From Dehalococcoidia bacterium (GTDB lineage: Bacteria; Chloroflexota; Dehalococcoidia; Lucifugimonadales; UBA3495): a stretch of 64,000 nt of DNA. The notes under the pieces were generated by a model. It saw only the letters and a list, made by a program, of their open reading frames with translations, made no database searches and was not told where the DNA came from. The stretch is taken from positions 1,088,643 through 1,152,642 of the forward strand of contig OZ244885.1 of the NCBI GenBank assembly GCA_965221385.1, in the 5' to 3' direction. A program made the position numbers and the translations under genes. Positions 35,939 to 63,114 of this stretch are shown in pieces (position 1 is the stretch's first letter; the number at the start of each line of letters is the position of its first letter).

Positions 35939-38230
35939 ATGAACCTGGGAGAGTTCATCGACACTTACAGGGACGCCATCGCCAAGCGGGTGGTGGAGTC
36001 GTATCCGCCTCTCTACCAGCCCTCTGACAACGGCCACGCCCTGCCCAAGCTGCTGCGCCAACCCCTGGGCGCCCAGGCCGACGCCATTCGCGGCGCCGCT
36101 CTGTCGCTCCAATCCAACCTGGGAACCACCGTGGTAGGCGAGATGGGCACGGGCAAGACCTTCATCGCCACCGCCGCCGCCTATGCCGCCGGATTCCGGC
36201 GCGTCCTGGTCCTCTGCCCTCCGCACCTGACCCGCAAGTGGAAGCGCGAGGTCGAGGAGACCATCCCCGTTGCCCACGCCGCCATCGTGTCGTCCATCAC
36301 CGACCTGGAACGGCTGCGACGCTACGCCGGAACCGGCCCACTGTTCGCCATCATGTCGAGGGAGCGGGCCAAGCTGTCCTATCGCTGGAAGCCCTCGGTG
36401 GTGGAACGCTGGGCCGTCTCCGGCGGCCGGCTGGTGCGGGACGAAACAACGGGCGAGCCGTTCAGGATTCCCTGCTGTCCCTCCTGCCATGCCCAGTTGG
36501 TGGACCGCGACGGCGTTCCCCTGGCCGACGCCGAGCTGAGCCGCCGCAAGCGCAACTGCTTCCGGTGCAAGAGTCCGCTCTGGCAGGCCGACGGCGCCGG
36601 ACCCCGCCGTTACCCCCTCGCCGACTACGTGAAGAACCGGATGCGTGGCTTCTTCGACCTGCTGGTCGGCGACGAGGTGCACGAGTACAAGGCTCGTGGC
36701 TCGGCGCAGGGCATCGCCGCCGGAGTCCTGGCCGACGCCTGCGGCAAGTCGCTGAGCCTCAGCGGGACTCTGATGGGAGGCTACTCTTCGACCCTGTTCC
36801 ACCTGCTCTACCGGTTCTCCCCGGAGATTCGGTCCGAGTTCGGCCGGTCTGAGGAAGGACGCTGGGTTCAACGCTACGGCTTCTTGGAGCAGACGGTCGG
36901 GCGCGACGACGAAGACCCGGTGGAGGACGGGCGCAACAGCCGGCGCCGCAAGTACCGCAAGGTGGTGCGGGAGCGACCGGGCCTGGCTCCATCCCCCCTC
37001 TTCCACCTCATCGGCAACTCCATCTTCCTGCGCCTCTCCGACGTGGCATCAGGCCTGCCCGACTACTCGGAGCGAATCCTGCTGTCGGGCATGGACTCCG
37101 AGGCGGACACCACCGGCTACTCCCAGCGCGGCGCCTACGACCGGCTGTTCACCGTGCTGCGGGAAGCCCTGGCCGATGCGCTTTCCAAAGGTTCCAAGCG
37201 GCTGCTGGCCGCCTACCTCCAGTCGCTGCTGGCCTACCCCGACGGCTGCACTCGCGGCGAGTCGGTCTTCGACCCCCGGAACGGCGACCTGCTGGTGCAG
37301 GTTCCGCCGCTGTCCGAGGACAAGCTCTACCCCAAGGAGAAGGCCCTGGTTGACCTGGTGGCCGCCGAGCGGATGGCCGGTCGCCGAGTCCTGGTGTACG
37401 TTACTCACACCGGAACCCGTGACATCACCGGCCGCATGGACGAAATCCTGACCCGGCATGGGTTCAAGGTGGCCGTGATGAAGGCCGACGCCGTGGCGCC
37501 GGAGCGACGGGAATCCTGGGTAGCCGACAAGGTCAAGGCGGGCGTCGACGTGCTCATCTGCCATCCCCGGCTGGTGCAGACGGGCCTGGACCTAATCGAC
37601 TTCCCGACGATCTGCTGGTACGAAACCGACTACTCGGTGTACACCATGCGGCAGGCGTCCCGCCGCTCCTGGCGCATAGGGCAGACCCGTCCGGTGCAGG
37701 TGGTCTTCATGGCCTACCGGAACACGCTTCAGGCTGACGCCCTGAAGCTGGTCGCCAAGAAGCTGCAATCCTCGCTGGCGGTGGAGGGCGAACTCCCCGA
37801 AGATGGGCTGGCTGCCTACGGCGATGATGGCGACGACCTGATGCTGGCCCTGGCCCGCAAGATCGTCAACGGCGACGCGGAGGACGAAGCGGAAACCGTC
37901 GAGCAGGTCTTCGCCCAAGCCCGCGACGCCGAGACTGCCGCCGAGGAACTGCTGGTGGACGACCAATGGCAGGCGGTGGAAGCTGCGCCGGGGGCGGTGG
38001 AGGTAATCGACAAGGGAGCGATGAAGCCGGTCGAACCGGCGGTCAACGGCCCTGGCGAACCGGACGTTCCGGAAGACCAGCAGTCCCTGTTCTCCTGGGC
38101 GGAATTCCTGGCAGAAGACCCCTCGCCAGTCAGGAAGCGGGGCCGCAAGCCGGAGCCAGCCGTAGCCTCCCTGTTCCAGTGGGCGCTGGAGCAGGAAAGG
38201 GAGGCCGAGCCGGTGGGAGCCGGCCGGTAG
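35939..38230 (+). CDS. SNF2-family helicase
   Basis: GEMGTGKT, DEVHEYK, and the helicase C block ..CHPRLVQTGLDL..QASRRSWRIGQ. Confidence 0.85.
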   Translation: MNLGEFIDTYRDAIAKRVVESYPPLYQPSDNGHALPKLLRQPLGAQADAIRGAALSLQSNLGTTVVGEMGTGKTFIATAAAYAAGFRRVLVLCPPHLTRKWKREVEETIPVAHAAIVSSITDLERLRRYAGTGPLFAIMSRERAKLSYRWKPSVVERWAVSGGRLVRDETTGEPFRIPCCPSCHAQLVDRDGVPLADAELSRRKRNCFRCKSPLWQADGAGPRRYPLADYVKNRMRGFFDLLVGDEVHEYKARGSAQGIAAGVLADACGKSLSLSGTLMGGYSSTLFHLLYRFSPEIRSEFGRSEEGRWVQRYGFLEQTVGRDDEDPVEDGRNSRRRKYRKVVRERPGLAPSPLFHLIGNSIFLRLSDVASGLPDYSERILLSGMDSEADTTGYSQRGAYDRLFTVLREALADALSKGSKRLLAAYLQSLLAYPDGCTRGESVFDPRNGDLLVQVPPLSEDKLYPKEKALVDLVAAERMAGRRVLVYVTHTGTRDITGRMDEILTRHGFKVAVMKADAVAPERRESWVADKVKAGVDVLICHPRLVQTGLDLIDFPTICWYETDYSVYTMRQASRRSWRIGQTRPVQVVFMAYRNTLQADALKLVAKKLQSSLAVEGELPEDGLAAYGDDGDDLMLALARKIVNGDAEDEAETVEQVFAQARDAETAAEELLVDDQWQAVEAAPGAVEVIDKGAMKPVEPAVNGPGEPDVPEDQQSLFSWAEFLAEDPSPVRKRGRKPEPAVASLFQWALEQEREAEPVGAGR

Positions 38231-38245
38231 CCTGGAACGCCCAAC

Positions 38246-38278
38246 GGGATGCCACCGCACGCGCTGCGGTGGCATCCC
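38246..38278. terminator. Perfect 14-bp stem-loop between convergent genes, followed by a T-run at 38303..38308
   Basis: GGGATGCCACCGCA-cgcgc-TGCGGTGGCATCCC. Confidence 0.5.
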
Positions 38279-38339
38279 ATGTCGGGCCATGTATGGCGGC
38301 TTTTTTGCGTTTTGGGTTCATCGCCACGGGATCAGTCTA

Positions 38340-41300
38340 CTAGACACCTACCGGGACGAATACATCAGGATGGTTTTGTACTTGTTCGGCAAATGGTTTG
38401 TCGTACCGGATGGTTATGACCCGGAATCCAAGGTCTTGCAATTCTGCACGGACCTTGGAGTCCGTCAATTGTTGCCCAGGTTCATCGTGATGTGGACCGT
38501 CCAAGAACACGCAAATGCCGGGGCGTCCCTCGCGTTCGTAGTAGAAGTCGGGCTGCACATGCAAATCCGAAGCAGGGCGGTTTTGAGCGTTGTCTGGCAG
38601 GCGGATGTGTCCCTTGTAGAGGAAATCGAGAAAGTCCATCTCCAACGTAGAATCCGCGAGTCCAGCCAACCACTCGTGCTGTTCTATATAGGTGCGCTTT
38701 CCTAGTTGGCGCACAGTTGTAGACGACGAAAGTAGGTCAAGATAGCTGCGAATGCTGTGGCGGTCCAGATGTCGGTGTTCCAACTGGTTGGAGTAGGAGA
38801 GCAGACACTCGTAGCAAGCGGCAGCGCAGTCCTTGTCCGCAGTTGAATCCTCGGACTGTTCCTCAAAATGGCACAGTTGCAGAGCTTGGAGGGCAACCTT
38901 CGCAATCGCGCCTGGCTCATTTGTCAGTTGCTCCCAAACACCGATGCCACCCTCCGCCGCCTCCCAGAGTAGCAGGCGGCGAAATTCACCCTCGCCTATG
39001 AGCTCAGCTTCAATTTCCTGCTCCTCCACTTGGTAGGCAAACTGGATTGCCCGCTTTAGTGCGTGAAGCAAGGAAATCTGAGAGCTCTCCGACATAATAT
39101 CTCGGAGTGGCTTGAGGAGAAGGATGTTTCTGAAATCTTGCACATACGGCTTGACGCCGGTCAGTGGGCCTACAATTGCAGGATCGCTCTCAGTTTCATC
39201 AGGCTCATCGCGAACTCCCCATCGCCCAGTTTGCCTGTCGATAGTAAATCCAGAGCGCTCACTCCTCCTCCAGCCGTGATTGATTCGCCAAACCCGTGCT
39301 CCGGGCGCGATCACCGCTTCCAAAATTTCCTCGCCATCTTTAGAGCGAACAATTGCACGTTGGGCGCTGGTGCTAGAAAAATTGAAGTGCGTGGTCACGT
39401 CGTAGCCGCTTCGAACGCGCTCCTCTTCTTCTGACGAGATTCTGTCCGTGGCGCGGGCGCGCATCGTTGGCTGGGGGAGTAACCGTTGGGGGAAGCCGGA
39501 CGTCGAACCATCCAGCTTGGTTTCGCAGTGAATGCAAAGCTCAACGTTGACATCTTCCCCGTCGTGAGCGTACCCACAAACATTGCAAAGCTTGGCGCTG
39601 GTAAGCACTCCCTCAATGCCGGCCGGAGGGATCAATGCTTCACGTATCCGGTGCTTGCGTCCCTCGTGGTACACCTGATTGCCCGGCCCAAATTCAGTGA
39701 GGCCCAGAAAGCGGGGGCGGTCAATGATTTGAGCGTTCTGTTCAACGGTTACTGTGGTTCTGACGGGCAGTCTTGGGAAGTTGTACCCAGGAAGAAATCC
39801 CTCGCCGGCAAGGTAGCGATACGGATAGAAGTCAGACTCCTCATACCGGTTTGTTCGATTGAGCAGCAACCCAATCTCGCGTCGGGCCTCCGCCTCCCGC
39901 CTCTCGGCTTCTTCCCGATCCTTCCTACTAGCGTGGGGATCATCAACTACGCGGTGGGCTGCGTCGCGCAAGGCGAGGGTGGAACGGTATAACTCACGCC
40001 AACGATCAAAAGCCCTGTCTAGGGCTTCGGGCGCCGACCTCAACGTATCCTGAATCCAATCATCCGAAAACCACTTTGCCTCCCGGATGTCCTCGGTTCT
40101 CTTGATGATCTGTTGGGCGCGGTCCACGGCTTCAATTATCCGCATCTCGCTGTTCGATCCCCGCAAGGCCTCGGCATTTTCTGGCTGGATGGGGAAATCA
40201 CTTTCATTCAGATCAAGAATTTCGGCCATTCCACTGCCCAAGCGTAGTCCGGTTGTGGCAAGCCAGGTGGAGTACAAGTGGGCTTTGACCAATTCCTGAT
40301 TTTGGAGGTCCATTCGCGCCGGGGTGACTGCGCCGGCAATCATCTCGTTTCGGCGTCCGAAGTAGTATTGGTCATGGGCATTACCGTGTGCAGCGTAGGC
40401 AACGATTAGGGCAGGACGCCCCCCTCGACCAGCACGGCCACTGCGCTGGGCATAGTTGGCGGGAGTGGGCGGGACATTGCGAAGGTGTACTGTGTCCAAG
40501 TCCCGAATGTCCACGCCCAATTCCATCGTTGGTGAACAGAACAGGGCTGATAGTTCGCCTCGCCTGAAATTGTCTTCGCGCGCTAAGCGAGTTTCTGAGA
40601 CGACCTGCCCAGTATGCTCGGCTGCAAGCATTCCACGCAATTGGCGCGCTTGATGCTTGTACAGATGGACGAAGTAGTCGTTTGCCTCACCGGCGCCAGC
40701 TATTTCTCGCTTTAGGTGCAAGGACCGCGACCTTATCGGATCAGGGGGCGCAGGACGGCCGTCGCCGGCGGTCCAAACCATACTTGCTGCCAGTAACCTT
40801 ACCCCTCGGACCTCCCCGCCGCTATCAGATACGGTAGAGAGTAGATGTCCACGTAACGCAGCTACAATGCCGATTACGATGTCTTCAGCCTCTTGCGGGG
40901 AAATGCTTCTCTCCAAATTCCAAGCATGGGCTGAGCGCAGATAGCGCGCTACGTTGGAACGCGCTCCCAATCTAAGCACACCTCGTTGCCTGCCTTCGGT
41001 TCGAGTCGTCTGTACACCCGGCAGCAGCGCGATGCCTTGCGCCCGCAGGCGATCACCGTCATCGAATCGCCACGGGTCCCGTAACCACTGACTTGCCCGG
41101 TCGCGCAGACTTCGGGTCGAACTCTCGCTGAGGGATTCTGCTTCAATAGCAAGATTCATCCTCAGATGGTCGAGGAACGCGCGGATCACCCCAGTTCGCG
41201 TCTCTGGGGTGGCGTCGCCGATAGTAGGTAGTTCCTGCCACAGCGATTCGTCCGCGGTCAGTTTTTCGAGCCCGGCGTATTCGATTCGGAGTAGACCCGT

Positions 41301-43430
41301 CTGCTCCAAGTTAGGTTGCGTGATTCTCCAACCTCGGCTCAAGTCCTCCAAGGTTCTGTAGGCCAGAACGTCAATGATAGTTCGACGCCCAGTGTCATAG
41401 CCAGGGCCGCTTGCTACCGGCTCTTTCAGAAAGTCACCGGGCCGCAGTTGCAACGCATCGAAGACTTCCTGCCCCATCTGGTCGAACGTGAGGTGATGAT
41501 TTCTGCTCAGCGCCTCGACGATACCGGACCTGAGCAATGCCACCTGTACAAAGTCGTTCAGGTGACCGGCTTGCAGGGAGGCATCCTGCCGGTTGTCGGT
41601 AAAGCTGAGGGACTTCGTTTCCTCAGATGGTAGGCCCTGTTCAGCCATGCCCGAAACCGCCGCGTTCACCGCGATGGTAGTTGCTGTGGACCGCCCGGTT
41701 TGACTGAGCGAGGACAGTTTACGAAAGTCGTTCTGACGGGAATCATATACAGCACGACAGCGAAGGCATATTAGGAACGGTCTGGGCTGATACCATCCCG
41801 TCACACTGTTATCGGACCCGTCGTTTAGCCCTCCGCCAGGGGACGCGCTGTACTGGATGGGACGGAAGCGGGCATAGCCTGCCTTGATCGCCAGACCGGA
41901 ACGACGCTCGTTGAACCAGTGCTCCGGCAATTCGGTATCGTCGCCATTCCATAGGTCTTCTTCCTCAAGGGCAAAAAACCCGTCCTCTCCTTCGATGTCC
42001 TCGGTGGCTATTCCCACCATGGGTGAGCGAGGCACGAGGGACTCAAACCCTTCCCGTTCGGTCCGCGCAACCAAGTAATACTCCTGTCCGCACTCACGGC
42101 AGAAGGCCAGGGGGAATAGCAGTCGGTTTCCGTCGGCCCGATACTGGCCGTCCATCCTGAATTCCCTGGAACCAGCGTCCTCCAGGGTTGCGTAGACGCT
42201 GCTGCCTGATGAGAACCACTGGTGCAACCGGAAAGCCAACAATGGCTGACCGTCTTCGCCCTTGGCCTCATTACCGGCCTCCAATATTGCCCGCAACTGC
42301 TCCTCGCACTGTCCTACGGGAAGGCTGGTCTCGTCGGCCAGGCGCTGGGATATTGCGTCGAAGGTTTCCGGTGGACGGCGAACGAGCCTTCCGTCCTCTT
42401 CTTTCAGCCCGAAGGCTTCTTCCGTCCATGCCGTTAGTGGATGCTGGCGGACGGCATCTGCTTCCGGTGTCGGCGCCGGAGCCTCTACTGCCGCTCGCAA
42501 CGACGCGGCATCTGTGGGCGTTGGAACCCCAGCGACGCGCCGTAGCGTTTCGTCCACCACGTTGGCGGCGGGAACGTTCAGCCCGAAGAACTTGGACGCT
42601 AGTCCCGCCGCCGCTTCGTTGCGTTCTTGCCGGGATCCGCCGGTTACGATAGTGGCGCTTGTGGCGATGGCCTGGAGGTCTCTTCCGGCGCTTTCCTGCA
42701 AACGCCGAGTTAACATGGCTACATCGGCGCCCTGCCGTCCCCGATAGAAGTGCAATTCATCCATCACCAACGTTTGAAGGCCTTGAGTGGCGGTGGCAAG
42801 CAGTGGCCGTTCGGCGGGGCGAAGTAGCATGTACTCCGCCATGACATAGTTGGTCAGCAGAATATGTGGCGGGTCTTCCTTTATGCGCTCCCGTTCCTCA
42901 GCACGGTCCTGGCCAGTGTAGCGGTCAAAACGGACGGGAGAATCGGGATAGTTCTCCTCTTGGAAAGCTCGCAACGCATCCAATTGGCTGTTGATCAGGG
43001 CGTTCATCGGGTAGATAAGCAGCGCGCGGACAGAATGAGTCTCCGGAGAATTCCGGATGATGGCATCATAGATGGGCGCCAGGTAGGTGAGGCTCTTGCC
43101 GGAACCGGTCCCGGTGGTGACGACGTAGGATTCGCCCCGCAAACCTATTTCGATGGCCTCTCGCTGGTGGCGGAAGAGACGCAGGCCCTCGCCAAAATAG
43201 CGCGCGGTCTCCGACGCGATTACCCCGTCGGCCGCCAGCTCCCCCATGGTTCGATCCCGCTCAAAGGCTGGATTCAGCTGGAGAACCGCATCAGGCCAGA
43301 GTTCCCCCTCGTCCAGCATTTTTTGGACGTAATTGTCGATTCGCTGGTCCAGAACTTGGACAAAGCTCTTCACGTAGTCCCGGTATTCCGAAACTACCGT
43401 TTCCCTCAGCTTAAAGACATCCAGTGTCAT
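38340..43430 (-). CDS. DEAD/DEAH helicase fused to a DUF1998 (MrfA-type Zn-binding) domain and a C-terminal Vsr/DUF559-like endonuclease fold; DrmA+DrmB-like
   Basis: TTGTGSGKS, VMDELH, SATI; CNVCGY..CIHC and CAAACYECLLSYSNQ; C-terminal PDFYY..ICVFLDGPHHD..R..L..GFRV. ATG at 43430, 8 nt after the MTase stop. Confidence 0.8.
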   Translation of the reverse strand: MTLDVFKLRETVVSEYRDYVKSFVQVLDQRIDNYVQKMLDEGELWPDAVLQLNPAFERDRTMGELAADGVIASETARYFGEGLRLFRHQREAIEIGLRGESYVVTTGTGSGKSLTYLAPIYDAIIRNSPETHSVRALLIYPMNALINSQLDALRAFQEENYPDSPVRFDRYTGQDRAEERERIKEDPPHILLTNYVMAEYMLLRPAERPLLATATQGLQTLVMDELHFYRGRQGADVAMLTRRLQESAGRDLQAIATSATIVTGGSRQERNEAAAGLASKFFGLNVPAANVVDETLRRVAGVPTPTDAASLRAAVEAPAPTPEADAVRQHPLTAWTEEAFGLKEEDGRLVRRPPETFDAISQRLADETSLPVGQCEEQLRAILEAGNEAKGEDGQPLLAFRLHQWFSSGSSVYATLEDAGSREFRMDGQYRADGNRLLFPLAFCRECGQEYYLVARTEREGFESLVPRSPMVGIATEDIEGEDGFFALEEEDLWNGDDTELPEHWFNERRSGLAIKAGYARFRPIQYSASPGGGLNDGSDNSVTGWYQPRPFLICLRCRAVYDSRQNDFRKLSSLSQTGRSTATTIAVNAAVSGMAEQGLPSEETKSLSFTDNRQDASLQAGHLNDFVQVALLRSGIVEALSRNHHLTFDQMGQEVFDALQLRPGDFLKEPVASGPGYDTGRRTIIDVLAYRTLEDLSRGWRITQPNLEQTGLLRIEYAGLEKLTADESLWQELPTIGDATPETRTGVIRAFLDHLRMNLAIEAESLSESSTRSLRDRASQWLRDPWRFDDGDRLRAQGIALLPGVQTTRTEGRQRGVLRLGARSNVARYLRSAHAWNLERSISPQEAEDIVIGIVAALRGHLLSTVSDSGGEVRGVRLLAASMVWTAGDGRPAPPDPIRSRSLHLKREIAGAGEANDYFVHLYKHQARQLRGMLAAEHTGQVVSETRLAREDNFRRGELSALFCSPTMELGVDIRDLDTVHLRNVPPTPANYAQRSGRAGRGGRPALIVAYAAHGNAHDQYYFGRRNEMIAGAVTPARMDLQNQELVKAHLYSTWLATTGLRLGSGMAEILDLNESDFPIQPENAEALRGSNSEMRIIEAVDRAQQIIKRTEDIREAKWFSDDWIQDTLRSAPEALDRAFDRWRELYRSTLALRDAAHRVVDDPHASRKDREEAERREAEARREIGLLLNRTNRYEESDFYPYRYLAGEGFLPGYNFPRLPVRTTVTVEQNAQIIDRPRFLGLTEFGPGNQVYHEGRKHRIREALIPPAGIEGVLTSAKLCNVCGYAHDGEDVNVELCIHCETKLDGSTSGFPQRLLPQPTMRARATDRISSEEEERVRSGYDVTTHFNFSSTSAQRAIVRSKDGEEILEAVIAPGARVWRINHGWRRSERSGFTIDRQTGRWGVRDEPDETESDPAIVGPLTGVKPYVQDFRNILLLKPLRDIMSESSQISLLHALKRAIQFAYQVEEQEIEAELIGEGEFRRLLLWEAAEGGIGVWEQLTNEPGAIAKVALQALQLCHFEEQSEDSTADKDCAAACYECLLSYSNQLEHRHLDRHSIRSYLDLLSSSTTVRQLGKRTYIEQHEWLAGLADSTLEMDFLDFLYKGHIRLPDNAQNRPASDLHVQPDFYYEREGRPGICVFLDGPHHDEPGQQLTDSKVRAELQDLGFRVITIRYDKPFAEQVQNHPDVFVPVGV

Positions 43431-44309
43431 AGCTGCCTCTACTCGGTAAGGTCTGGGGCTTGACCTTGCGCCAGTTGGTCGTAGGCTTTCAGGACGTAGC
43501 GTTGGGTCCGGTACTCGCCGAACTCCCGCATCTCGTTGCGCTTGAGGCCTGGGAAAGATCGGGACGGCTCCGGCGCGTCGAGGATCCACTCCAAGTCGGG
43601 CCGATCCAATTGGTACATGTGGGCGTAGATGGCGTCCAACTCGCACTTCAGCCGGTGGCGCCGCTCCTCATCCCAAGGGAAGGGTGGGCCGTCGTAGCCA
43701 AGGTCCCGGGCGAAGGGTTCCAGGTCGTGGGCTGTGTAGGTCAGTTCCAGCACCCGTGGCACCACCATCTCCACCCAAGCAACGCCGGGCGAACCCTCCT
43801 CCAAGTACACCTCTGGCGGCAGCACCGGCAGCTGCTTCAAGATGAAGAAGTTCAGATTGACGCCCCCGACAGACAACCGAGCAGCCCAATCAAGCGGCAG
43901 ACTGTTCAAGTTTGCCAACACCAAGCATGAAGCGGTTGATTGCCAGTTTTCGTAGGCGAGAACTGGCGCACTATTGCCTACACCGCCGGTTGGCAGGTTT
44001 TCTGTCACCACAGTCCGCTCATTGGTTGCGTTAGTGATGCCCCGGATAGCCTGAAGCCAACTGGATGATTCCAGACGGATCAATGGCGCTTTGTTGCTCA
44101 CGGCGACTCCAGGTATTGCCATGCAGATTGCGGTTCGTTCGTTGGTTGGGCTTGCGATGTCCCTGAATACAATGACCCAACCGAAATGGTAGTGCCAGAA
44201 TCGCTGAGGCCCACGCTTGCTATCATTGCGGAAATTCCCGTTCGCTCGTTGGTCGGGTTGGTGATTTTCCTGAGAGCGAGCTGCGAGCCAATGCCGCGAG
44301 GGTACGTAG

Positions 44310-44417
<108 letters not shown>

Positions 44418-44913
44418 TAGGATGGTATCGCCGGTGTTTTCTGATTTGTCAAGTCTTTCAGCGACCTCTTTTTCCGGGACCCAGTAACGCGGCATGATCA
44501 CGGTGTAAGGGTCAGCCTTTTCCTCGTCGGTCAGCTCGCGGGCGTTGCCGCCCAGCAGGGCTTTCTCGTCCACGCCATCAAAGGTGGCAAAGCGGTGGTC
44601 GTACTGGTGGAACAGCTTGGCCTCATATAGTGGCAGGTAACGTTCCACATCCTCCCCTTCTCCTCGCACGAACACGTTGCTCTGTAGCCCAAATCCGGCC
44701 TCCTCAAAGCTCCCTCCAGGAGCGGAAGATGCTGGAGTCGTTGGACATGTCGAACATTCTCTGGAATCTGACGCCCCAGGGGTTGCTGACTGAGGGAGAG
44801 TCTTTCCTTCTAGCCGGTAGCCCTGAGCTTCCAGTTCTGTCCGAGTTCGAAACAGACCGGATGCGCTTGACATGTGAAACATCGACTGAAACCGTACGCT
44901 CCAAGGATTCCTG

Positions 44914-44922
44914 CCCCCCCCC
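44914..44922 (-). repeat. G9 homopolymer (C9 on the plus strand) within the methyltransferase gene
   Basis: Counted directly; lies at the switch between track ORFs 44704..47916 and 44223..45074. Confidence 0.95.
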
Positions 44923-47879
44923 GGCACCTTGGCTGTCGCGGACGAAAACGCCGGCTCGCTGGTACATTTTGGCGGCGACTTCCATGTCCCGCCGAGTGCG
45001 GAATGTGGGGCTGGTTCGGGTATTGGGGTTGAACAGGGCAAAGTCTTGAGGCGCCAGGTTGTACCTACGGGCATCGTCCTGTAGTTGTTGAGATTGCGTA
45101 AGGTAGAAGGCGAACTCCGCCTGTGGGCTGGGTCGGCCCGTTCCGGTCATGGTGAGCAGGCAGAACTTTATCCTGCTGTCGATACCGGCAAAGACCTTCT
45201 CTCGATTTTCGAAGTCAAAGAGGCTGACCAGGGAGCGGCGGTTCACCAGGTCACCGAAAAATACCTTGGTTGTATCGTCTGTGGCTATCCCTGAAGGCAC
45301 GATGATGCCGGCGCGGCCCGATGGGTGGCAGATTATCCGCGCCGTTTCCGAGAATATGGAGTAGGTATTGACATCGCCGCGTCCGGCCAAAGGAAACCGA
45401 TTGCTGTTGCGAACAAAGCGGCTGACCGACTCTGAATCGTGAACGGCGTCATCAAATGCCTTGGCCAATGCAGGATTGGTGTTGGGCAACCTGTTGATCA
45501 ATCTGCTGCGGGCGGCCTTGTTGGGGGCGTTAGCGATTTCAGGGTCTCGTGTGGCAAAGAACTCCTTCTCCTGGAGCTTGATCCGCTCCCAGGGCGGGTT
45601 GCCCAGCACCACGTCGAAGCCGCCGGCCTCCATTACGTCGGGAAACTCTAGAGGCCAGTGGAAGAATCGTTGCCGTTCCGACGCCCCCATAGCGGCCCCC
45701 ACCAACTTCGCGTTCGCGCTATGGTCCTGTAGGGCATTCCGGACGTTCTGGGTGGTAGGAACCATGTCTACCCCGTCCGAACCTGCCGGCTTAAGCGGAG
45801 CGAAGAAGCCGTAGGTCCACAGGTCGCAGGCCGTCTTGATCTCCCACCATCGGGTGCCCTGCCCACGCAGTTGTTTGTACAGGTCCTCCTTGGCTTTCAC
45901 CTCTGACGGGCTGCGTTCCTCCAACTGGCCGAAGGCTGCGAAGTCCTCGCCCAATTTCGCCGAGGACGATGGAAGTATCTCCAGATTCATGCTCTGCTGT
46001 CCCGTCAACTCCCGCCGGTTGCGATTACGGTAGTCAGTTGCCGCTCTGTTGTCATCGCCGGTAACGGTCCTGTAGGCCCCGTCCGGGATGCCCTCTTCCA
46101 AAACCGTAAAGTCACTGACGCCCACCAGACTATCGCCGCACTTGATGCGATGGTCCAGGAAGCTGAGGGGCAGGCCGGCGGCGTGGCTCTCCAGCCACAA
46201 TGCCACCTTGCACAGGTCCACCGCCAAAGGATTCTTGTCCACGGCATAGATGCAGTTGCGGACCACCTCTCGCAGGGCGGCGCGGTAGTCTGAGGGTGAC
46301 GGCTCGTCCTCACCAGTACGAACCTTCGCCAGCTCCCGTGCGATGCGGCGGGCGGCCGCCAGCAGGAAATGGCCGGAACCCGAAGCTGGATCGCAGACCC
46401 GCAGGCTCAGCAACGCCGCCGCCTTATCCTCCGGCGTAGTGGCCTCATTCAATCGCTCTTCCATCACGGGCGCCAGGGCGCTTTCGACCAGTTCCCGAAC
46501 CAGTTCCGGTGGCGTGTAGTAGGAACCCGTTTCCTTCCGTTCGGTGCCGGCGGCCAGCCTGAAGTGCGCAGGCTCACCAAGGTCATCTCCCAAATCCACA
46601 ACCGGGCGGTAGTCCAGGAGGCTCTCATAAACGGAGCCGAACTCCTCAACGTCCAAATGCGCGTAGTTGACCCGGCGGCGGATGCCCTTGTCACGGAAGG
46701 TAGATAGATGAAGCAGGGTTAGCAGCAGGGACTTGTTGGGGCAGAAAGCCTTCTCGATGTCCTTGCAGGCGCTCGATCCAAACAATTCCCCGTTTAGCGG
46801 AGACATACCCAGGTGGGTCGCGGCTTGTTCATCGCGGAACATGCGGAATGTCTGGGCGAGCCTTTCCCAGAGGTCGCCATGGTTGTCGTCGGCGAAGTTG
46901 CCTTCGGCACGGTCTCGAAGGCTGGAGACGCTGTAGTATCGGTCATATATTGCCTGCGCCTCCAGAGAGGCGCCAGAAGACAACAGCCTGCGCTCCTCGG
47001 TAACCATGAGGAAGAGCATCCGGTACACGAAATTGAGAAGCTGCCTGAAGTACCCTGCTTCTGTGAGCCGGCCGGCGCGGATGGCTTCTCGCAAGGTGTC
47101 GTTGCGAGGATGTCCAACCAATGCCGACCCCAGCTCAGCGAGCGCCAGCTCCACGCCGTGGCGCAAATTCTCCCGCACCCTTCCGCCTTCCTCGATGCCT
47201 TGGGTGTAGTATTGCTCCAACAGGCACTCATGGGGTTCAACGCCGTCGCCAGGAAATCGGCTGGCGTGAAGCAGTCGGTAGAGCACCACGAAATCCCCGT
47301 AGGCATTGCTCTCCAGCATCGAACGGAGATCGAACTCCAAGTAGGTCGGCCTGGACAGGCGAGCGCTATCGCGTAGGAGCCGTAGTTTGGCTCCATTGGA
47401 CACCAGGCCCCAAAGGGTCTCCGAGCGGTTCAGGTAATCCTGAACCAAGGCGTGGGGCGTTCGACGGCTGGCGGTTCCGCGCCGATCCAGGTCCTCTCTG
47501 ATGCCGACGATGTGCAACGGTGGCGCATTCTCGGAGTCATGGATACGGTGAGAAATTGGGAACAACGTACCCCCGACGTCGGCCGAGGCTCTTTGGTATT
47601 CCACATTCGTGAATCCCAACAGCTCCATGAACCCGGTCATCCAGTCTCGCCGGGTTAGCGTCGTTTCGCTCTCCCTGGAATTCTCCAAGCGGGCATCGAA
47701 GGCGACCCAATACTTGCGGGCCGCGTCAAAGGCCTTCCCCGTTTCGTCGGGGAGACGGGAGCCAGGAGGCAGATTGAAGTCCTCAACCGCCTGACCCGCG
47801 ACTCTCCCTTCCTCTGACGCTAGTCGCTCCAGCAAGTCTGGGGGAAACAATCCGCCTTCGATATTGATGGTCGTGTAGC

Positions 47880-50711
47880 TCATGGAGATGCTCCAGCTGG
47901 CGTCAAAACGTAGCACCCAATGATGTCCGGCGGCAGGTGAGGTTCTACCTTAACCTTGGATCCCCTAACGGTTCGCCGCAATCGAGCGTGGGCGCCTTCA
48001 AGGGCCGCAACACGCTCAGCGATAATGCCATTGGCCCAGTCGCCATCCAGCATTCCCAAGGCCCATTCGACGTGCTCGTGACGCTCTGCCTGGGAGATGT
48101 TGGCCACGGGTTCAGCATCGCTGAGAAGCCGGAGGGCTTCATCCTGCAAAGGGGAAAGCCAACGTAACCCATCATCGCCTCGCTGAAATGCAGCCGCGAC
48201 GACTTCCTCGGCGAACTGTTGGCTCTCCGCTTCTATCAGGTATCGCAAACGCAATATAAGCACCGCCGTGCGTCGTTCTACCGCACGGGTGACAATGGCT
48301 CCAGAACGGGAGAAGAGCTGGTCGTTACCTTCAAGGGAACGTGAAAGCACTGATTCTGCCGTGGTTGCGACAATGGGGTGATTGCGCCCCAACAGAGTTA
48401 CTCCCGGCGGGGGTACGCCCTTGAAGGACACCTGCATCGGGAAGGACAACCGCTGGTCTCGCGCAATAATACGGGTCTGCAAATCGCCTGGCGCCAAGGT
48501 GAACACCCCGTCAGTCTTGGTGTCGCGGAGACCTCCGTTGAATCGCTGCACGGCGTTTGCCATGAACCGATACACGTCATCGGCGCTGCCCAACACTGGA
48601 TCCATCTCGGCAAGCTCGCCAGCAACCTCGTCGGGCTGGATTCCGCTTTGGGCGAAATAGGCCCGGGATTTTCCGTCCTTGTCGGCCATTTCCTCCCACG
48701 CCTCATGCAGGCGACTAACTGATGGATCCTCCAGGGCGAGACCGATTTGCTGCCCCTGGCTCGGCCGTCTCAGCAGCACACTGTCCACCAGAGCGTTAAC
48801 TACCTGCTCCGATTCTACAGGCACGGGCACGGAAATGCCGAGGCTTTGGCGGATGGTCTGAGCCTTTCGTAGTAGGACATCAAGGACAACCAAATCGATC
48901 TGGTTGTCCGCTCCGTATAGGAGCACGGTCTTGATTGTGGGCTTGCTCTGGCCAAAGCGATCAACCCTGCCTTCGCGCTGCTCCAGACGATTTGGGTTCC
49001 AGGGAAGATCATAGTGAACCACGGCGTCGTAGTGGTCCTGTAGGTTTACGCCCTCGCTCAGACAATCCGTAGCCACCAGGACTCTCACCGGCTGTTTTGC
49101 CAACTCCAAGACGATTTCCTTGCGTTGCTCGCTGTCGCCTGCATTACCGGTTACTGCCTTGACCGTGAGGCCCCCGTGACTGCTTTCCAATGACTGCTGA
49201 ATGTGCTCTGCTACGTAGTGGGCGGTCTGAATGAAGCGGCAGTACACTATGGGCCTGTATCCCTCGCCCAGAAGTTCGGATACAATCTTGGCGGTTTCTC
49301 GGACTTTGGCGTCCTTGCCAGGTTTGGCCAGGTCATCGGCGCGTTTCAGGAAATCGTCCAATCTCCGAATTTCGCGGGGCCCAAGAGAGCCGCTGTGGTC
49401 GTCCTCGTGGGTCGCTGGAACATAATCGGTGGCCTGTTCCTCATCGACGGAATCCATTAGTTGCTGGCCAAATGAATCGTCAGGCGCGAATCCGTTCTGT
49501 CGTCCGGACGTGGGCGGTTTGCGGTTCTGTAGCGCGGCCCGGGCGGCCCAGGGGCTGGACAAGACACAACGTAGGATCGACAGAGCCGCCCAGTAACGGA
49601 CTCTCTGGCGTTGGTCCTGCACGCCTGAACCGGAAACCTGCTCCCGGCAATAGGACAGTATGTCTTCGTACAGCCTGTGATAATCCGCCGACATCCTATA
49701 GCTCCGTTCGACAGCCTCCCTTTGGGGGAACGGCGTGTCAACTCCCAGCCAGCGTTCCAGGTCAATCCTCCTCCGCTGAATGAAATGAGGCAGCAACTTT
49801 TGGCGGGGAACCTCCGTACCGTCGGGCGGATCGAAGCTGGTATCGATGATACCGAGGAGGGACCTGAAGCTCTCCTCAATTCCGCTATGGGGAGTAGCGG
49901 TGGTAAGGATCAGGTGCCTGTTCGAGTCCTGCGCCAAATCCCGCAGCAGCGCATACCGTTGGTGTTGAGACCCTCCCCGGTCACCCCTCGGTCGTGCGGC
50001 GGTGTGGGCTTCATCCATAACAATAAGGTCTGGCGCATTATCCAAGAATCGCTGACGATTTCGGTCCGATTTTACGAAATCTATGCTTACTACGAGGTGG
50101 CGGTAGTGCTGATAGAGAGACACGTCTCCGCGAGGTAAGGCTCGCTCCAACCTCGCGATTCTGGAAGACTGGACAACAGCCGCTTGGATGTTGAATTTCG
50201 TGCGTAGCTCCTCCTCCCACTGCTCGCAGAGGTGTGGAGCGCACAGAACACCAACCCGACGCACAACTCCTCGGTCCAACAGCTCTCGCGCAATCATCCC
50301 AGCCTCAATGGTTTTCCCGATGCCAACGTCATCCGCGATCAGTAGGCGAACGGGATCGAGGCGAAGCGCCATGATTAGAGGAACAAACTGGTATGGGCGT
50401 GGAACAACGGAAAGCCGCCCCATCGACCGGAAAGGGCCGGCGCCGCTCCTCAGTCCGAGCCGCACCGCATCCCGAAGCAGAAGCGCCCCGGTAAAGTCTC
50501 CAGCCGAATTCGGGTCAGGTTGCTGGTACTCCGAATGCTTTAAGGCCGTCGGTTCCAGGGGCAGATAGACCCCTATGGCATCCTCGTCGGAGCCGTCAAT
50601 GGGTCGCAGTCTGGCCACGTTTGGTTCATCAGGCGGCAAAACCACCCAGTCCCGGCCGCGCGCGCGGACCAACTGCCCTGGCGTCCACTTGCTCTCCTGC
50701 CGTGAAGCCAC
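47880..50711 (-). CDS. drmD: SNF2-family helicase, DrmD-like
   Basis: LIADDVGIGKTIEAG, VMDEAHT, TATPHSG, helicase C ..LATDCLSEGVNLQ..REGRVDRFGQ; ATGA overlap with the MTase start. Confidence 0.8.
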   Translation of the reverse strand: MASRQESKWTPGQLVRARGRDWVVLPPDEPNVARLRPIDGSDEDAIGVYLPLEPTALKHSEYQQPDPNSAGDFTGALLLRDAVRLGLRSGAGPFRSMGRLSVVPRPYQFVPLIMALRLDPVRLLIADDVGIGKTIEAGMIARELLDRGVVRRVGVLCAPHLCEQWEEELRTKFNIQAAVVQSSRIARLERALPRGDVSLYQHYRHLVVSIDFVKSDRNRQRFLDNAPDLIVMDEAHTAARPRGDRGGSQHQRYALLRDLAQDSNRHLILTTATPHSGIEESFRSLLGIIDTSFDPPDGTEVPRQKLLPHFIQRRRIDLERWLGVDTPFPQREAVERSYRMSADYHRLYEDILSYCREQVSGSGVQDQRQRVRYWAALSILRCVLSSPWAARAALQNRKPPTSGRQNGFAPDDSFGQQLMDSVDEEQATDYVPATHEDDHSGSLGPREIRRLDDFLKRADDLAKPGKDAKVRETAKIVSELLGEGYRPIVYCRFIQTAHYVAEHIQQSLESSHGGLTVKAVTGNAGDSEQRKEIVLELAKQPVRVLVATDCLSEGVNLQDHYDAVVHYDLPWNPNRLEQREGRVDRFGQSKPTIKTVLLYGADNQIDLVVLDVLLRKAQTIRQSLGISVPVPVESEQVVNALVDSVLLRRPSQGQQIGLALEDPSVSRLHEAWEEMADKDGKSRAYFAQSGIQPDEVAGELAEMDPVLGSADDVYRFMANAVQRFNGGLRDTKTDGVFTLAPGDLQTRIIARDQRLSFPMQVSFKGVPPPGVTLLGRNHPIVATTAESVLSRSLEGNDQLFSRSGAIVTRAVERRTAVLILRLRYLIEAESQQFAEEVVAAAFQRGDDGLRWLSPLQDEALRLLSDAEPVANISQAERHEHVEWALGMLDGDWANGIIAERVAALEGAHARLRRTVRGSKVKVEPHLPPDIIGCYVLTPAGASP

Positions 50712-50819
50712 GCGATTACCTACCTATTTTCCAAGTCTTTGTGCCATCGTTTGACATCATCAAATTATTACCTTAATATTGCAACACGCTTCACTAACCC
50801 AGCGACGGAACCTGCCGTG

Positions 50820-51656
50820 ATGACCACCGACACCAAGCCCAAGCAAACATTGGTAGGGATCGAACTCATCCGATTGCTTACCTCCGAGGGCGACCGTATC
50901 TTCACCATCGAACGGGCTCGCGAGTTGGCGCCCCGTGTCGGGCTGAGAGATTCCTATCTTCGGGAGGCATTGTACCACCTTCGCCAGAACGGATGGATAG
51001 TCTCCCTACGACGGGGACTGTATGCCCTTTGCCCGACGATTCCAGGCGTGCCGGCTGCGCACGAGTACGAAATCGCCACGTTTCTGGTGACGCCTGCAGC
51101 CATCTCCCATTGGTCAGCCTTGAGCTATCACGGCCTCACCGAGCAGCCGCCTAGGACTGTCTTCGTATCGACCACCACGCAGGCTTCCGTTCCCCGGTCC
51201 AGGCGAAACGATGCGGACCGCCTTGACCAGGGCTATGAAGTCCTGGGTACAGCATACCAATTCATTCAACTCAAGCCGGAACGCTACTTTGGGGCTGAAA
51301 AGGTTTGGCTCAACGACGCCCGGGTGAGGATTACCGACCTGGAACGCACACTGCTGGACGCGCTATCCATGCCCCAACACTGCGGCGGATTTGCCGAGGC
51401 CCTCCACGCCTTTCGTTCAGTGACGGACAGGTTGGACATCGACCGGATCGTGGGTTATGCCCTCCAGCTCGATGGAGCTACCGCCAAGCGTCTCGGCTGG
51501 GTTTTGGAGCAAGACGGGATAGATTCACCGCAACTGGATGTCCTCGCCGACTTCCCAGTCAGGGGATACACGCGGCTCGACCCAACCGGGCCCAGAAAAG
51601 GGAAGTGCGGCGGGCGGTGGATGATTCAGGAGAACCTGCCCGGAATGCTTGCATGA
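50820..51656 (+). CDS. abiEi: AbiEi-family antitoxin/transcriptional regulator
   Basis: ..LRRGLYAL.. ISHWSALSYHGLTEQ .. DLERTLLDAL pattern. Confidence 0.75.
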   Translation: MTTDTKPKQTLVGIELIRLLTSEGDRIFTIERARELAPRVGLRDSYLREALYHLRQNGWIVSLRRGLYALCPTIPGVPAAHEYEIATFLVTPAAISHWSALSYHGLTEQPPRTVFVSTTTQASVPRSRRNDADRLDQGYEVLGTAYQFIQLKPERYFGAEKVWLNDARVRITDLERTLLDALSMPQHCGGFAEALHAFRSVTDRLDIDRIVGYALQLDGATAKRLGWVLEQDGIDSPQLDVLADFPVRGYTRLDPTGPRKGKCGGRWMIQENLPGMLA

Positions 51657-52531
51657 TGAGACCACTACACACCCGTCTTCAAGAAGCCCGCCAACGCCTG
51701 GGCCTACCATGGGAAGTCCTGGAGCGTGACTACCTGCTGTCGTGGGTCTTGGCAGGGATAGCGCGAACGCCGGCCCTCCGCGACTCTCTGGCATTCAAAG
51801 GCGGCACGGCCCTCAAGAAGTGCTACTTCAGGGACTATCGCTTTTCCGAAGATTTGGACTTCACGGGACTGGACAGCGCCCCTACTGGGGAGGCGATGGA
51901 AGGGGCCATGAAAGAAGCCATCGAGAGTGCGTTGGAGTTGCTAGAGGAATATGCCCCCATCGTTCTGGAATGCCAAAGGTACTCGGAGCGGGAGCCGCAC
52001 CCAGGCGGTCAAGAGGCTTTCGTCATACGCGCTCAGATGCCGTGGCAGAACCAGCCCCAGACCCGAATCATGGTGGAGGTAACGCTTGACGAGAAGGTTT
52101 TCTGGCCGATGGAAAGACGGCAAGTCGTCCACGAATACGGCGAGCCTCTGGAGGCTGAGGTCCTGATCTACTCGCTGGAAGAGGTGGTGGCCGAGAAGCT
52201 GCGGGCAATCCTCCAGCACGCGGATACACTGGAACGGCGGGGCTGGAGCCGTTCCAGGGCACGGGACTACTACGACCTTTGGCGTGTGTTGGGAACTCAC
52301 CGACAACGGTTGGATCTGACCGAGTTCGACGCCAATCTGCGGGACAAATGCGCTCTCAGGAATGTGGCATTCACCGGGCCGGCTGATTTTTTCGCTCCTC
52401 GAATGATGGGCTATGTCCGCGAAACGTGGCGACAGTCGTTAGGCCCACTGGTCCCAAACCTGCCTGCCTTCGATGCGGTTATTGAAGACCTACGCCCGCA
52501 AGTTTCGGGACTCATGGCGGGCGACGACTAG
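51653..52531 (+). CDS. abiEii: AbiEii/AbiGii-family nucleotidyltransferase toxin
   Basis: LAFKGGTALKKCYFRDYRFSEDLDFT; ATGA overlap with abiEi. Confidence 0.8.
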   Translation: MMRPLHTRLQEARQRLGLPWEVLERDYLLSWVLAGIARTPALRDSLAFKGGTALKKCYFRDYRFSEDLDFTGLDSAPTGEAMEGAMKEAIESALELLEEYAPIVLECQRYSEREPHPGGQEAFVIRAQMPWQNQPQTRIMVEVTLDEKVFWPMERRQVVHEYGEPLEAEVLIYSLEEVVAEKLRAILQHADTLERRGWSRSRARDYYDLWRVLGTHRQRLDLTEFDANLRDKCALRNVAFTGPADFFAPRMMGYVRETWRQSLGPLVPNLPAFDAVIEDLRPQVSGLMAGDD

Positions 52532-52775
52532 GGGCAAATCGGAGGCCGCTACCCCTAGGTTGACCGTCCGGTGGCACCGATGGGTTGCGTCCCACCAATG
52601 GCAGGTGGTTGAAAGTGGTGGAAACGGGATGCAGCAGGAATCCGGACTGCCCCACAGGTGGTGCGGGGATGCTGACTGCGCTGGACGCGCCCGATTGCTG
52701 CCTCACGTCAATCCGCTTCCAACCCCGCTACCCAGGAATACCGCAGCTTTTGGTGGTGATTGACTGACCAATAAC

Positions 52776-54002
52776 TTGGCGCAAGAGGTCGTTAGGGGCA
52801 TGAGGGAAGCGGCCTCCCGTGGCTTCTGGATGACCACCAACGCCCCCTACGGCTACCAACGGGTTTACGTCCAGGACGGCGCCAAGAAGCGACCCCGTTT
52901 GGCCCTGAATCCCCCGCACGACGCCGTGGTCCGCCGCATCTTCGATCTCACCCTCCAGGGCAAGACTTCCCTGGACATCCTGAAGACCCTCAACGGCGAG
53001 GGCATCCCCTCGCCCATGGGAAAGCAGTGGCGCAAGACCACCGTTCACAAGGTGTTGGGCAACGAAGCCTACACGGGAACACTGGTCTGGGGCGAAAACG
53101 CCAAGGACAACGCCCCGCCGGTGCGGGTGGAGAACGCCTTTCCCGCCATCGTGACGAAGGGAGAGTTCGCCCGGGTCCGCAGCCTCTTGGAGTCCCGCGC
53201 CCCCAAGGTAACCCACCCTCGGCGGGCCGCCAGTCCCTACCTGCTGAGCGGGCTGGCAAAGTGTGAGACCTGCGGCAAGGCCCTGACTGCCGCCGAAGCC
53301 AAGAGCGGCAAGTACACCTACTACGTCTGCCAATCCATGCTCAAGCTGGGCAAGGATGCCTGCAACTGTCCCCGGCTGAATGCCAAAGACTTCGAACAGC
53401 TCATCATCTCCACCCTTCGGGAACACATCCTCACCGAGTCCAACATACGAGATTTGGTCAAGATGTTGGATGAGGAGATGGACGGCGTGGCCAGGGATCA
53501 AAGGGACCGGCTGGAGACGGTGGAGGCGGAACTGGCCGAGGTTCGGCGGAAGATGGACCGCATCTGGTATTTTGTAGAGAACACCAAACTGGACATGGCC
53601 GACGCCTCGGAGCGCATCCTAGAACACCGCCACCGGCGGGAGCATCTGGAAGCGGCCGCCGAGGAAGCCAGGGCCGTCCTGGCGGAACGGAGGCAGTTGC
53701 TGGACAGCGCCGACGTGATCGCCGCCTTCGCCACCGAGATGGGGGAGTTCCTGCGCACCAGCGAGATCACCGAGACGCGGGCCTTCATCCGGTCATTCGT
53801 GAAGGAGGTGACAGTGGTTGCCGGCAAAGCCACCATCATCTACACAATCCCCACCCCCAAGGACAGCCCCATCAGGGGAGCGGACATGGCGGAAGTGGCT
53901 TTGAATGGAGGTTTTCGCAGTACAATACATGATGGTGGGCCGTGTGGGGGTCGAACCCACGACACCCGGATTAAAAGTCCGGTGCTCTGCCGACTGAGCT
54001 AA
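52776..54002 (+). pseudogene. Element A large serine recombinase, C-terminal fragment (continuation of 11232..11654)
   Basis: Starts (L)AQEVVRGMREAASRGFW..; recombinase domain, zinc-ribbon-like CETCG..C..C and a coiled coil. The last ~23 codons are translation through the antisense of tRNA-Lys, so the true end is uncertain. Confidence 0.85.
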
Positions 54003-54008
54003 CGGCCC
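53933..54008 (-). tRNA. tRNA-Lys(UUU): tRNA-Lys (anticodon UUU), encoded CCA
   Basis: Hand-folded cloverleaf: acceptor GGGCCGU/ACGGCCC, D arm GCUC/GAGC, anticodon stem CCGGA/UCCGG with loop CUUUUAA, T arm GUGGG-UUCGACC-CCCAC. Confidence 0.9.
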
Positions 54009-54102
54009 TATTCAACATCAACCTACATTGTAGCATACGACCAATCTCCCACTACCTTGAACATTCGCCGAACCGGCCTACCCGGGTTAGATACCATGGT
54101 CG

Positions 54103-54402
54103 TCAGCCAGACTGTAGCAGGTTGGGACGGATCCGAGTGTTCCAGTTGTCCTCTTCTCCAGCATTTCGCAACTGTTCTACCAGCTCCGCCGTTTCCTGCC
54201 CCACCGATTGGCGCAGTTCTTGAACCGACCGGCTACCGGCCAGCACAACCACCGCCGACCGCAGCTTCATCACATACTCAGCTACTTCATAGGCCGCTCG
54301 GTCTGATGCGGAACGAGACTGGAGGGCTTCCAGTTTCTCCAGCCATTCCAACCCCCTTTCAGCGTCTTCAAACCTGTCGTCAAGCGCATTGGTAGTCGTC
54401 AA
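54103..54402 (-). CDS. Hypothetical helical protein
   Basis: 99-aa ORF with coding-like composition. Confidence 0.45.
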   Translation of the reverse strand: MTTTNALDDRFEDAERGLEWLEKLEALQSRSASDRAAYEVAEYVMKLRSAVVVLAGSRSVQELRQSVGQETAELVEQLRNAGEEDNWNTRIRPNLLQSG

Positions 54403-55981: not shown

Positions 55982-56029
55982 CCGTTGTTTTCGGGCAAGC
56001 GGCCCGAGGAGCGGGGGAACCGCTAGCAG

Positions 56030-63058: not shown

Positions 63059-63114
63059 TGGTTAGTCAATCCAGCCATGCGAGGGCTGAATGGCAAGAGT
63101 GGTTGCCTGGTAGG

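Follow-up and report, generated by a model that had tools for sequence, protein, structure and literature searches.

The 64,000-nucleotide (nt) stretch of Dehalococcoidia bacterium contig OZ244885.1 analysed here (positions 1,088,643 to 1,152,642 of the forward strand; hereafter the window) carries on its minus strand a gene for a DrmMI / Eco57I-type N6-adenine DNA methylase. Inside this gene a run of nine G residues precedes two diverged tandem copies of a conserved protein segment, which we call NPW after its NPW..RFQ.MF motif and which lie in different reading frames. We consider it probable that the G-run and the two NPW copies form a repeat-driven frame-choice module in the target recognition domain (TRD) of a DISARM-like defence methylase, and that such an arrangement is nested twice in the gene.

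The poly-G tract, the putative frame selector, occupies 44914..44922 of the minus strand (G9 on the coding strand, C9 on the plus strand). It is followed by NPW copy 1, the 'FHM' flavour (44785..44909, minus strand), which consists of a homologous part, 44802..44909, and a 17-nt junction to 44785. Read from 44909 to 44802 in the frame of the second open reading frame (ORF) of the gene, copy 1 encodes NPWSVRFQSMFHMSSASGLFRTRTELEAQGYRLEGK, which begins NPWSVRFQSMFHM and ends ...LEGK. This frame is entered solely with G8 or G11; under G9 the copy is read out of frame, without a stop, as QESLERT..SPSVS. Copy 2, the 'FDM' flavour (44660..44784, minus strand), is read in the frame of the first ORF, beginning at 44784 and running through ...WREL until a TGA at 44704..44706 that falls inside GAGCTTTGA. 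The last third of copy 2 (FEEAGFGLQSNVFV, 44667..44708) is in the next frame, which runs on downstream. At 44706..44708 (minus strand) a TTT holds one T beyond the reading frame of the family, in whose other members copy 2 is in frame with LYEAK. The extra T both generates the TGA and joins the copy-1 frame to the downstream gene. Removal of one T in silico restores the copy-2 route, giving ..WRELEEAGFGLQSN.. joined to the downstream frame, and removal of one G from G9 brings copy 1 into frame. The layout and its reading had been given in a preliminary description of the window, all of whose sequence statements hold on re-reading, and the effects that it ascribed to the two single-nucleotide slips were reproduced by this editing. 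The copies are spaced by 125 nt (2 mod 3), and its conclusion that they are mutually exclusive, with the G-run selecting the frame, stands as well.

Over the whole unit the two copies are identical at 62/125 ungapped positions and across the first 75 nt at 47/75 (63%), so that the figure of about 60 percent quoted earlier is fair for the homologous part. Self-comparison, which had been proposed as a check, gave at the 125-nt offset a top 100-nt window with 57/100 matches, compared with a mean of 42 and a maximum of 48 for the best value at any offset in 100 shuffles. An NPW profile built from homologues matches both window copies, with 56.9 and 42.7 bits. Within the segment, residues 9 and 12 (44874..44885 and 44749..44760 in the window), in the context x-MF-x-M, are variable and take few recurring pairs, namely S/T/A..H, R..D, Q..N and L..M. 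Copy 1 has S..H and copy 2 has R..D, and the rest of the TRD motif is invariant across the family. This is the pattern expected of base-specifying positions.

A search with one genome per species yielded 80 related loci, nearly all in metagenome-assembled genomes and distributed over many phyla; going by the record names, many of them are probably bins from sponge or coral holobionts. The NPW profile was scanned over the three forward frames of these loci. The segment is single-copy in 76 of 81 loci (the 80 relatives and the window) and in 120/120 homologous proteins inspected. To this extent the earlier supposition that the block occurs once elsewhere is borne out, and it fails for four of the 80 relatives, which share the out-of-frame duplication: L007 (Longimicrobiales), L012 (Dehalococcoidia), L024 (Acidimicrobiia, a short-read assembly) and L025, which is near-identical to L024. 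In the duplicated loci, the window included, the order is always the same: the FHM copy adjoins the poly-G directly, and the FDM copy lies behind it, shifted one frame back, at an offset of 122 or 125 nt that is always 2 mod 3. The tract is G10 in L007 and L025 and G12 in L012, compared with G9 in the window, and the contig of L024 breaks precisely at the G-run. Poly-G is thus present in 4/4 duplicated loci that reach that far (the window, L007, L012 and L025), whereas none of the single-copy loci has a homopolymer there; by chance, this co-occurrence would have a probability of about 6e-7. The FHM and FDM flavours each also exist as single-copy alleles in other loci. Further long homopolymers are found elsewhere in the methylase gene of five relatives, L037, L038, L060, L066 and L076 (C13, G12, C14, C17 and G20).

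The frames of the relatives suggest what the module may do. In L007, L012, L024 and L025 the copy-1 frame stops five codons past copy 1, reading ..RETHGE before a TAG or ..VRETPGE before a TGA. The copy-2 frame takes copy 1 as an out-of-frame linker and continues through copy 2 into the remaining gene. No stop interrupts this frame in L007, L024, L025 or the window, and in L012 it has a TAA just past the G-run, before copy 1. L007 is assembled in the 'long' state, and the third frame of the relatives stops early. The window lacks the stop that follows copy 1 in the relatives, and none of the relatives carries the extra T. Two proposals of the preliminary description are not supported by this comparison. 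Against a second programmed slip at the TTT stand the facts that T3 is not slippery, that no relative has it and that copy 2 of the relatives runs straight on. Two full-length enzyme variants do not seem to be the general design, given the stop five codons past copy 1 in all four relatives. The likeliest reading of the extra T is an insertion of 1 nt specific to this lineage, which may either have swapped the roles of the frames or have started the inactivation of the gene.

When metagenomes were scanned for MFHM..MFDM with the appropriate spacing, the 14 matches were all due to chance in AT-rich or repetitive DNA and none was related, so that no further duplicated locus was gained. A 64-residue protein query consisting of copy 1 plus its tail returned 0 candidates, and among the 120 homologous proteins none had a long spacer between AGVF and NPW or an end just past NPW.

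The substitution pattern shows that both copies have been maintained. Copy 1 orthologues differ with a nonsynonymous divergence (dN) of 0.07-0.27 and a synonymous divergence (dS) above 1.1, and their differences at codon positions 1/2/3 of their own frame number 43/30/104; copy 2 behaves alike. Because dN is low relative to dS and the changes are in excess at position 3, both copies must long have been kept as coding sequence in their own frames, and by this measure both are under purifying selection, each in its own frame. Between the two copies of one locus synonymous sites are saturated, and the copy 1 of one locus is more like the copy 1 of another than like its own copy 2. Within its group the copy 1 of the window has diverged furthest (dN 0.23-0.27), with unusual SSAS and K residues. 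Own-frame selection together with recurrence argues against a relic, an assembly error, gene conversion and mutagenesis of the type carried out by diversity-generating retroelements (DGRs). The preliminary description had held the duplication to be neither recent nor an assembly stutter. This is upheld: the duplication is old, and it is neither a stutter nor random decay. That description had left the choice between relic mosaicism and alternative expression unsettled; the four-locus recurrence and the purifying selection favour alternative expression and disfavour relic mosaicism. Two ways of accounting for the paired copies were considered and rejected. Gene conversion that keeps the copies alike does not agree with the saturation of synonymous sites within a locus, and silent cassettes for homologous recombination would require more than the 50-63% identity observed.

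The preliminary description overlooked a second module in the same gene, which begins about 400 nt downstream of the NPW module. Here the tetranucleotide repeat (AGCC)27 (44310..44417, minus strand; GGCT on the plus strand) comprises 27 perfect copies according to TRF, is translated as (SQPA)9 and is the sole long perfect repeat in the window. It is followed by three diverged tandem copies, in two frames, of a 35-residue 'R.I..TNERT....P..G' segment (TNERT hereafter), the whole module occupying 43952..44417. Copy A (44176..44280), together with a 24-codon tail and a stop at 44098..44100, extends over 44098..44280 of the minus strand; its frame, which would give a short A isoform, is reached via (AGCC)28, and the A-frame peptide of the window includes ITNPTNERTGISAMIASVGLSDSGTTISVG. 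Copy B (44072..44176, minus strand) shares a frame here with copy C (43952..44056, minus strand), which is reached via (AGCC)26 or 29 and is continuous with the C-terminal 200 residues.

In contrast to the NPW duplication, which only a few loci possess, the multi-copy TNERT arrangement is found in 61/76 scorable loci. A simple repeat is present at the homologous spot in 61/61 multi-copy loci versus 1/15 single-copy loci, and its unit length is always 1, 2, 4, 5, 7, 8 or 11, never 3, 6 or 9. The units vary by locus (C9-29, G9-12, (AG)17, AGCC, ACCG, GACC, GAGCC, (GCCGA)61 and 7-, 8- and 11-mers), and the tracts are up to 305 nt long. Among loci with an identifiable repeat, 44, including the window, have what we call the type I layout. 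In this layout frame a reads copy A and some 24 further residues as a tail to a conserved stop position; frame a-1, about 295 aa long, takes copy A as an out-of-frame linker and goes on through B and C into the C-terminal domain; and the third frame stops after about 28 aa. In the 13 loci of type II, copies A, B and C lie in three different frames, and the products are A plus a stop, a linker plus B plus a stop, or two linkers followed by C and the C-terminus. The states found in the assemblies are B 16, third frame 16 and A 12 for type I, and A 4, B 4 and C 3 for type II. Database proteins end as predicted, P0034, P0045 and P0063 in the A frame and P0003, P0007 and P0010 through B and C; P0010 translates its (GAGCC)n tract as (AEPSR)n.

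The TNERT copies also carry the mark of selection in their own frames. Diversity at codon positions 1/2/3 over all loci is.56/.49/.66 for A,.49/.29/.64 for B and.41/.23/.68 for C, and over the type II loci.42/.29/.55,.40/.30/.63 and.28/.11/.59. The minimum is therefore at position 2 and the maximum at position 3 in each case, type II included, and copy A has 0 stops in its own frame across 57 loci. Tract length differs between loci with 99.8% identical flanks, being (ACCG)19 and (ACCG)50 in the pair L045 and L047, and (AGCC)9 and (AGCC)19 in the pair L048 and L054. Furthermore, loci that are 86-89% identical bear wholly different repeat units at the same position. These observations on length concern the second module of relatives.

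The products of each tract state in the window were deduced from in silico edits. As assembled, the methylase gene is divided into three ORFs on the minus strand, 44704..47916, 44223..45074 and 43439..44122. With G9 or G12 the product is 1070 aa long and ends inside copy 2, and with G10 or G7 it is about 1035 aa. G8 or G11 gives copy 1, then 31 out-of-frame copy-2 residues and then FEEAGFGLQSNVFV.. onward, and G9 with TTT reduced to TT reads through copy 2. At the second tract (AGCC)27 gives an early stop, (AGCC)28 the A isoform and (AGCC)26 copies B and C. The combination of G8 and (AGCC)26 yields a single ORF of 1490 aa with no other stop. The edits produce lengths of 1035, 1070, 1230, 1273 and 1490 aa, with the N-terminal 1000 residues or so common to all, and hence a change of frame alters the C-terminal part and does not abolish the product. 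Since only G8 or G11 together with (AGCC)26 or 29 gives the 1490-aa enzyme, the window as assembled is OFF at both switches. Both tracts are perfect repeats inside the ORF with units that are not multiples of 3 (G9 and (AGCC)27), which is one of the features of a contingency locus.

The following scheme would account for these features. Slippage in the poly-G would shift the ribosome among the three frames, presumably by a replicative, heritable and reversible change. In the relatives, one frame would read copy 1 correctly and then stop, so that the product is a truncated isoform with an NPW segment of its own at the end. In the next frame copy 1 would serve as a stop-free, unconstrained linker and copy 2 would be read correctly, giving a long isoform, and the third frame would lead to an early stop. 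In the window, these roles would have been swapped because copy 2 gained a T and the stop behind copy 1 was lost, so that the long product would be made via copy 1 at G8 or G11. Independently, the AGCC tract would pick the A-ended short isoform, the full-length protein or the early stop. Our guess is that the short isoforms are folded and dead for methylation, such that defence is turned off and the partner-binding N-terminal part, presumably the contact for the helicases, is kept. The scheme supposes that the window's own tracts vary in length and that the short isoforms are made and are useful.

AlphaFold2 (AF2) models of two homologues of the window protein, P0003 (long isoform) and P0045 (A isoform), indicate where the segments would lie in the fold. 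The P0003 model has a mean pLDDT of 87.7 and its fold matches CamA, M.BseCI, M.TaqI and BrxX/PglX with E values of 1e-8 to 1e-5. According to this model the enzyme belongs to the gamma class of N6-adenine methylases and has a TaqI-like TRD, after which comes a helical C-terminal domain. A PDB sequence search with the reconstructed C-terminal half gave no match, and it was fold comparison alone that placed the domain. The NPW segment (P0003 residues 397-436) forms a strand, a loop, a helix and a hairpin within the TRD. Copy C (611-646) contributes beta strands to the same beta domain, with block-mean pLDDT of 86-96, and the stretch 510-607, made up of the linker beside the repeat, copy A read out of frame and copy B, is of low confidence. 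On the modelled structures, then, both modules, NPW and TNERT, sit in a TRD like that of TaqI, CamA and PglX. In P0045, copy A is modelled as strand-loop-strand-strand, with the topology of copy C and block-mean pLDDT of 56-88. Copy A folds like copy C in these models, and therefore each truncated isoform would end with a private copy of a beta-domain element that it would otherwise miss.

Several observations weigh against a frame-choice module. The window needs the extra T as a secondary change. We found no second assembly that covers its switches, in which the lengths of G9 and (AGCC)27 could be compared. Independent examples of the NPW module besides the window number only four, and these are not nearest neighbours and form no clade by flanking sequence, on which ground a single-origin clade was rejected; either repeated loss or transfer by recombination may lie behind this. 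In addition to the stop between poly-G and copy 1 in L012, L007 has a further upstream frameshift (near 4640..5005) in sequence with no repeat, which may mean that the module is in decay in some loci. The agreement in fold between copies A and C is partly circular, in that the AF2 input alignment set copy A against copy C of other proteins, and the codon-position statistics of copies A and B are biased toward the frame of the protein profile by which these copies were located. Finally, truncated isoforms lack the remaining TRD and the C-terminal domain and are unlikely to methylate DNA, and the benefit of the isoforms is conjectural for this reason. Look-ups of exact products were of little help, one being empty and the other giving only L081, which ends before the switches. 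L081 (ENA ERZ26695579, ctg110428; 2.29x according to the contig name) has a 100% identical SNF2 helicase and the same AbiE and recombinase neighbours, and its contig ends 1.4 kb into the methylase gene.

The main rival for this genome is that the methylase is simply a pseudogene here, with the NPW copies as remnants of a former module or of an old 125-nt tandem duplication and their frames of no further consequence. The gene as assembled is interrupted three times, by the states of the two tracts (G9 and (AGCC)27) and by the extra T. The window's copy 1, more diverged than any other in its group, no longer has the stop found behind copy 1 in relatives, and L012 and L007 carry further lesions. 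Nevertheless, two of the three interruptions lie in hypermutable tracts and each of these is undone by a change of one unit, leading to the 1490-aa ORF. The related loci are distributed at about a third per frame state, as expected for switching and not for decay. Moreover, the family profile still gives good scores for the two copies of the window, and the partner genes are intact. We therefore regard a dead gene as unlikely. A different explanation is that the isoforms are made simultaneously, RNA polymerase or the ribosome slipping on G9-12 to yield a fixed mixture of long and short products, as in recoding of the dnaX type. Homopolymers of at least nine bases are known to cause transcriptional slippage. 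The G-run is 9-12 nt long in the duplicated loci, and selection on both frames would fit steady co-production. On the other hand, the 2-, 4-, 5-, 7-, 8- and 11-nt repeats of the sister module, which reach 305 nt, change by slippage of DNA and not in transcription, and they vary between near-identical loci. All frame states are seen among the assemblies, although both mechanisms are compatible with one another. We infer that switching occurs by heritable DNA slippage rather than, or besides, slippage in transcription, and we judge a fixed mixture to be quite improbable.

The remaining alternative is that the paired copies are an artefact or a foreign patch: a mis-assembly of two alleles, as the preliminary description had allowed, a recent recombination scar from a diverged homologue, or the template and variable repeats of a DGR. 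In its favour, FHM and FDM exist as alternative single-copy alleles, and the duplicated loci are scattered in the family tree. However, the order, the frame offset and the poly-G are repeated in independent assemblies from several phyla. Copies that are 50-63% identical cannot stutter in assembly, and orthologues of copy 1 are closer to each other than to their own copy 2. A DGR was rejected on the pattern of mismatches, which number 28 and are of all types, only 8 of them falling at an A of either copy. An explanation of this kind is very improbable, and a frame-choice module remains the reading that we prefer.

The product of the methylase gene (43439..47916, minus strand) matches Pfam Eco57I (5.9e-19) and N6_Mtase as well as PADLOC DrmMI (4e-80), which is the methylase expected of class 1 DISARM, and its first ORF contains GNPPWERIK with the NPPW catalytic motif. 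Upstream lies a DpdE/DrmD-like helicase gene of the SNF2 type (47880..50711, minus strand). Class 1 DISARM has an adjacent SNF2 helicase, DrmD, and one is present here, though DpdE scores better (PADLOC 3e-186, versus 2e-92 for DrmD). This partner is kept upstream of the methylase in 55/80 related loci. Downstream, 38340..43646 of the minus strand encodes a 1768-aa DEAD helicase with Helicase_C and MZB (DUF1998-type) domains by Pfam and PADLOC, which resembles DruE and DrmA+B. Its top PADLOC match is DruE (1e-96), with DrmA weak (2e-13), and a DEAD/MZB helicase is found downstream of the methylase in 18/80 loci. Both of the partner helicase genes are intact. No PLD gene (DrmC) was seen among the scanned neighbours of the methylase. 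We use the term DISARM-like for the system, without assigning it to DISARM proper, because DruE is the best match, DrmA is weak and a PLD gene is unseen in the neighbourhood. The longest ORF of the downstream helicase, from a GTG at 43646, overlaps the final 208 nt of the methylase gene (43439..43646); either its real start is farther downstream, or translation of the two genes may be coupled.

Near the defence genes are AbiEi/AbiEii (50739..52531) and a serine recombinase (52776..54002). TraG/VirB4-like and coupling-protein genes of type IV secretion occupy 17429..22335, an SLFN-type helicase lies at 3149..4939 and a DUF6094 methylase at 34569..35816. Near 38 kb the G+C content decreases from about 0.67 to 0.58. 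From this gene content, the region that holds the defence genes looks like an integrative or conjugative, or otherwise mobile, element (38000..64000 and 17429..22335).

It is of interest to compare these modules with known switches. Type III mod genes in Haemophilus and Neisseria bear (AGCC)n or (AGTC)n. As in the present case, a hypermutable repeat that is not a multiple of 3 sets the frame within a methylase ORF, and even the AGCC unit is shared. In contrast, the known switches are ON/OFF and their wrong frames are junk with an early stop, whereas here the wrong frames hold a selected copy of a segment. The hosts here are free-living or symbiotic environmental lineages and not host-adapted pathogens, and the enzyme is DrmMI / type IIG-like. 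For Type I and Type III systems there is ample documentation of methylases that vary in phase through repeats (PMC5909438, PMC7383803). A closer parallel in function is the G-tract phase variation of pglX in the BREX-type Pgl system of Streptomyces coelicolor (Sumby and Smith 2003, as cited in PMC4365076). According to that secondary account, a poly-G within a large defence N6-adenine methylase of the PglX fold class, which is shared, switches the system; what it describes is simple ON/OFF switching, with no duplicated segment in an alternative frame. In the C-terminal phase variation reported for Helicobacter canadensis (Snyder et al. 2010, PMC2823697), a repeat late in the ORF likewise changes the sequence or length of the C-terminus and the protein is not abolished. 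There, however, the tails consist of a few arbitrary residues, whereas here they are 35-40-residue paralogous, structured TRD segments conserved across phyla, with up to three frames in use and two modules nested in one gene. Specificity switching of hsdS and similar cassettes by DNA inversion of the shufflon type (PMC9881135) also draws alternately on several diverged target-recognition copies beside the expressed gene. That process depends on site-specific recombination of inverted repeats, and here the copies are direct and tandem and are chosen by reading frame.

Full-text literature searches returned no account in which a repeat precedes paralogous segments that lie in tandem in different frames, and none of phase variation in DrmMI-type genes. 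Whether the two modules exemplify an undescribed design of contingency locus seems to us an evenly balanced question. In such a design a hypermutable repeat would be followed by tandem, diverged copies of a segment in different frames, and the length of the repeat would select the copy and the C-terminus, giving up to three structured isoforms. Most members of the family would have one module and a few a second one upstream (poly-G with two NPW copies), for up to nine genotype states, and the design would have spread across phyla by horizontal transfer.

Phase variation by simple repeats is usually seen as a coin-flip between working and broken, mostly in pathogens, and here the 'broken' frames are not junk: in dozens of loci, belonging to many environmental phyla, they hold a paralogous TRD segment under purifying selection. 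If the design is as we propose, one gene can encode several stable isoforms that are indexed by repeat length, and others could be searched for by their signature, namely a repeat unit not divisible by 3 with diverged copies in tandem behind it, offset by 2 mod 3. Many of the 'frameshifted pseudogenes' of defence methylases in metagenome-assembled genomes would then be switch states. The role of a truncated methylase would also become testable, for example as a means of turning defence or self-methylation off while the helicase complex is kept.

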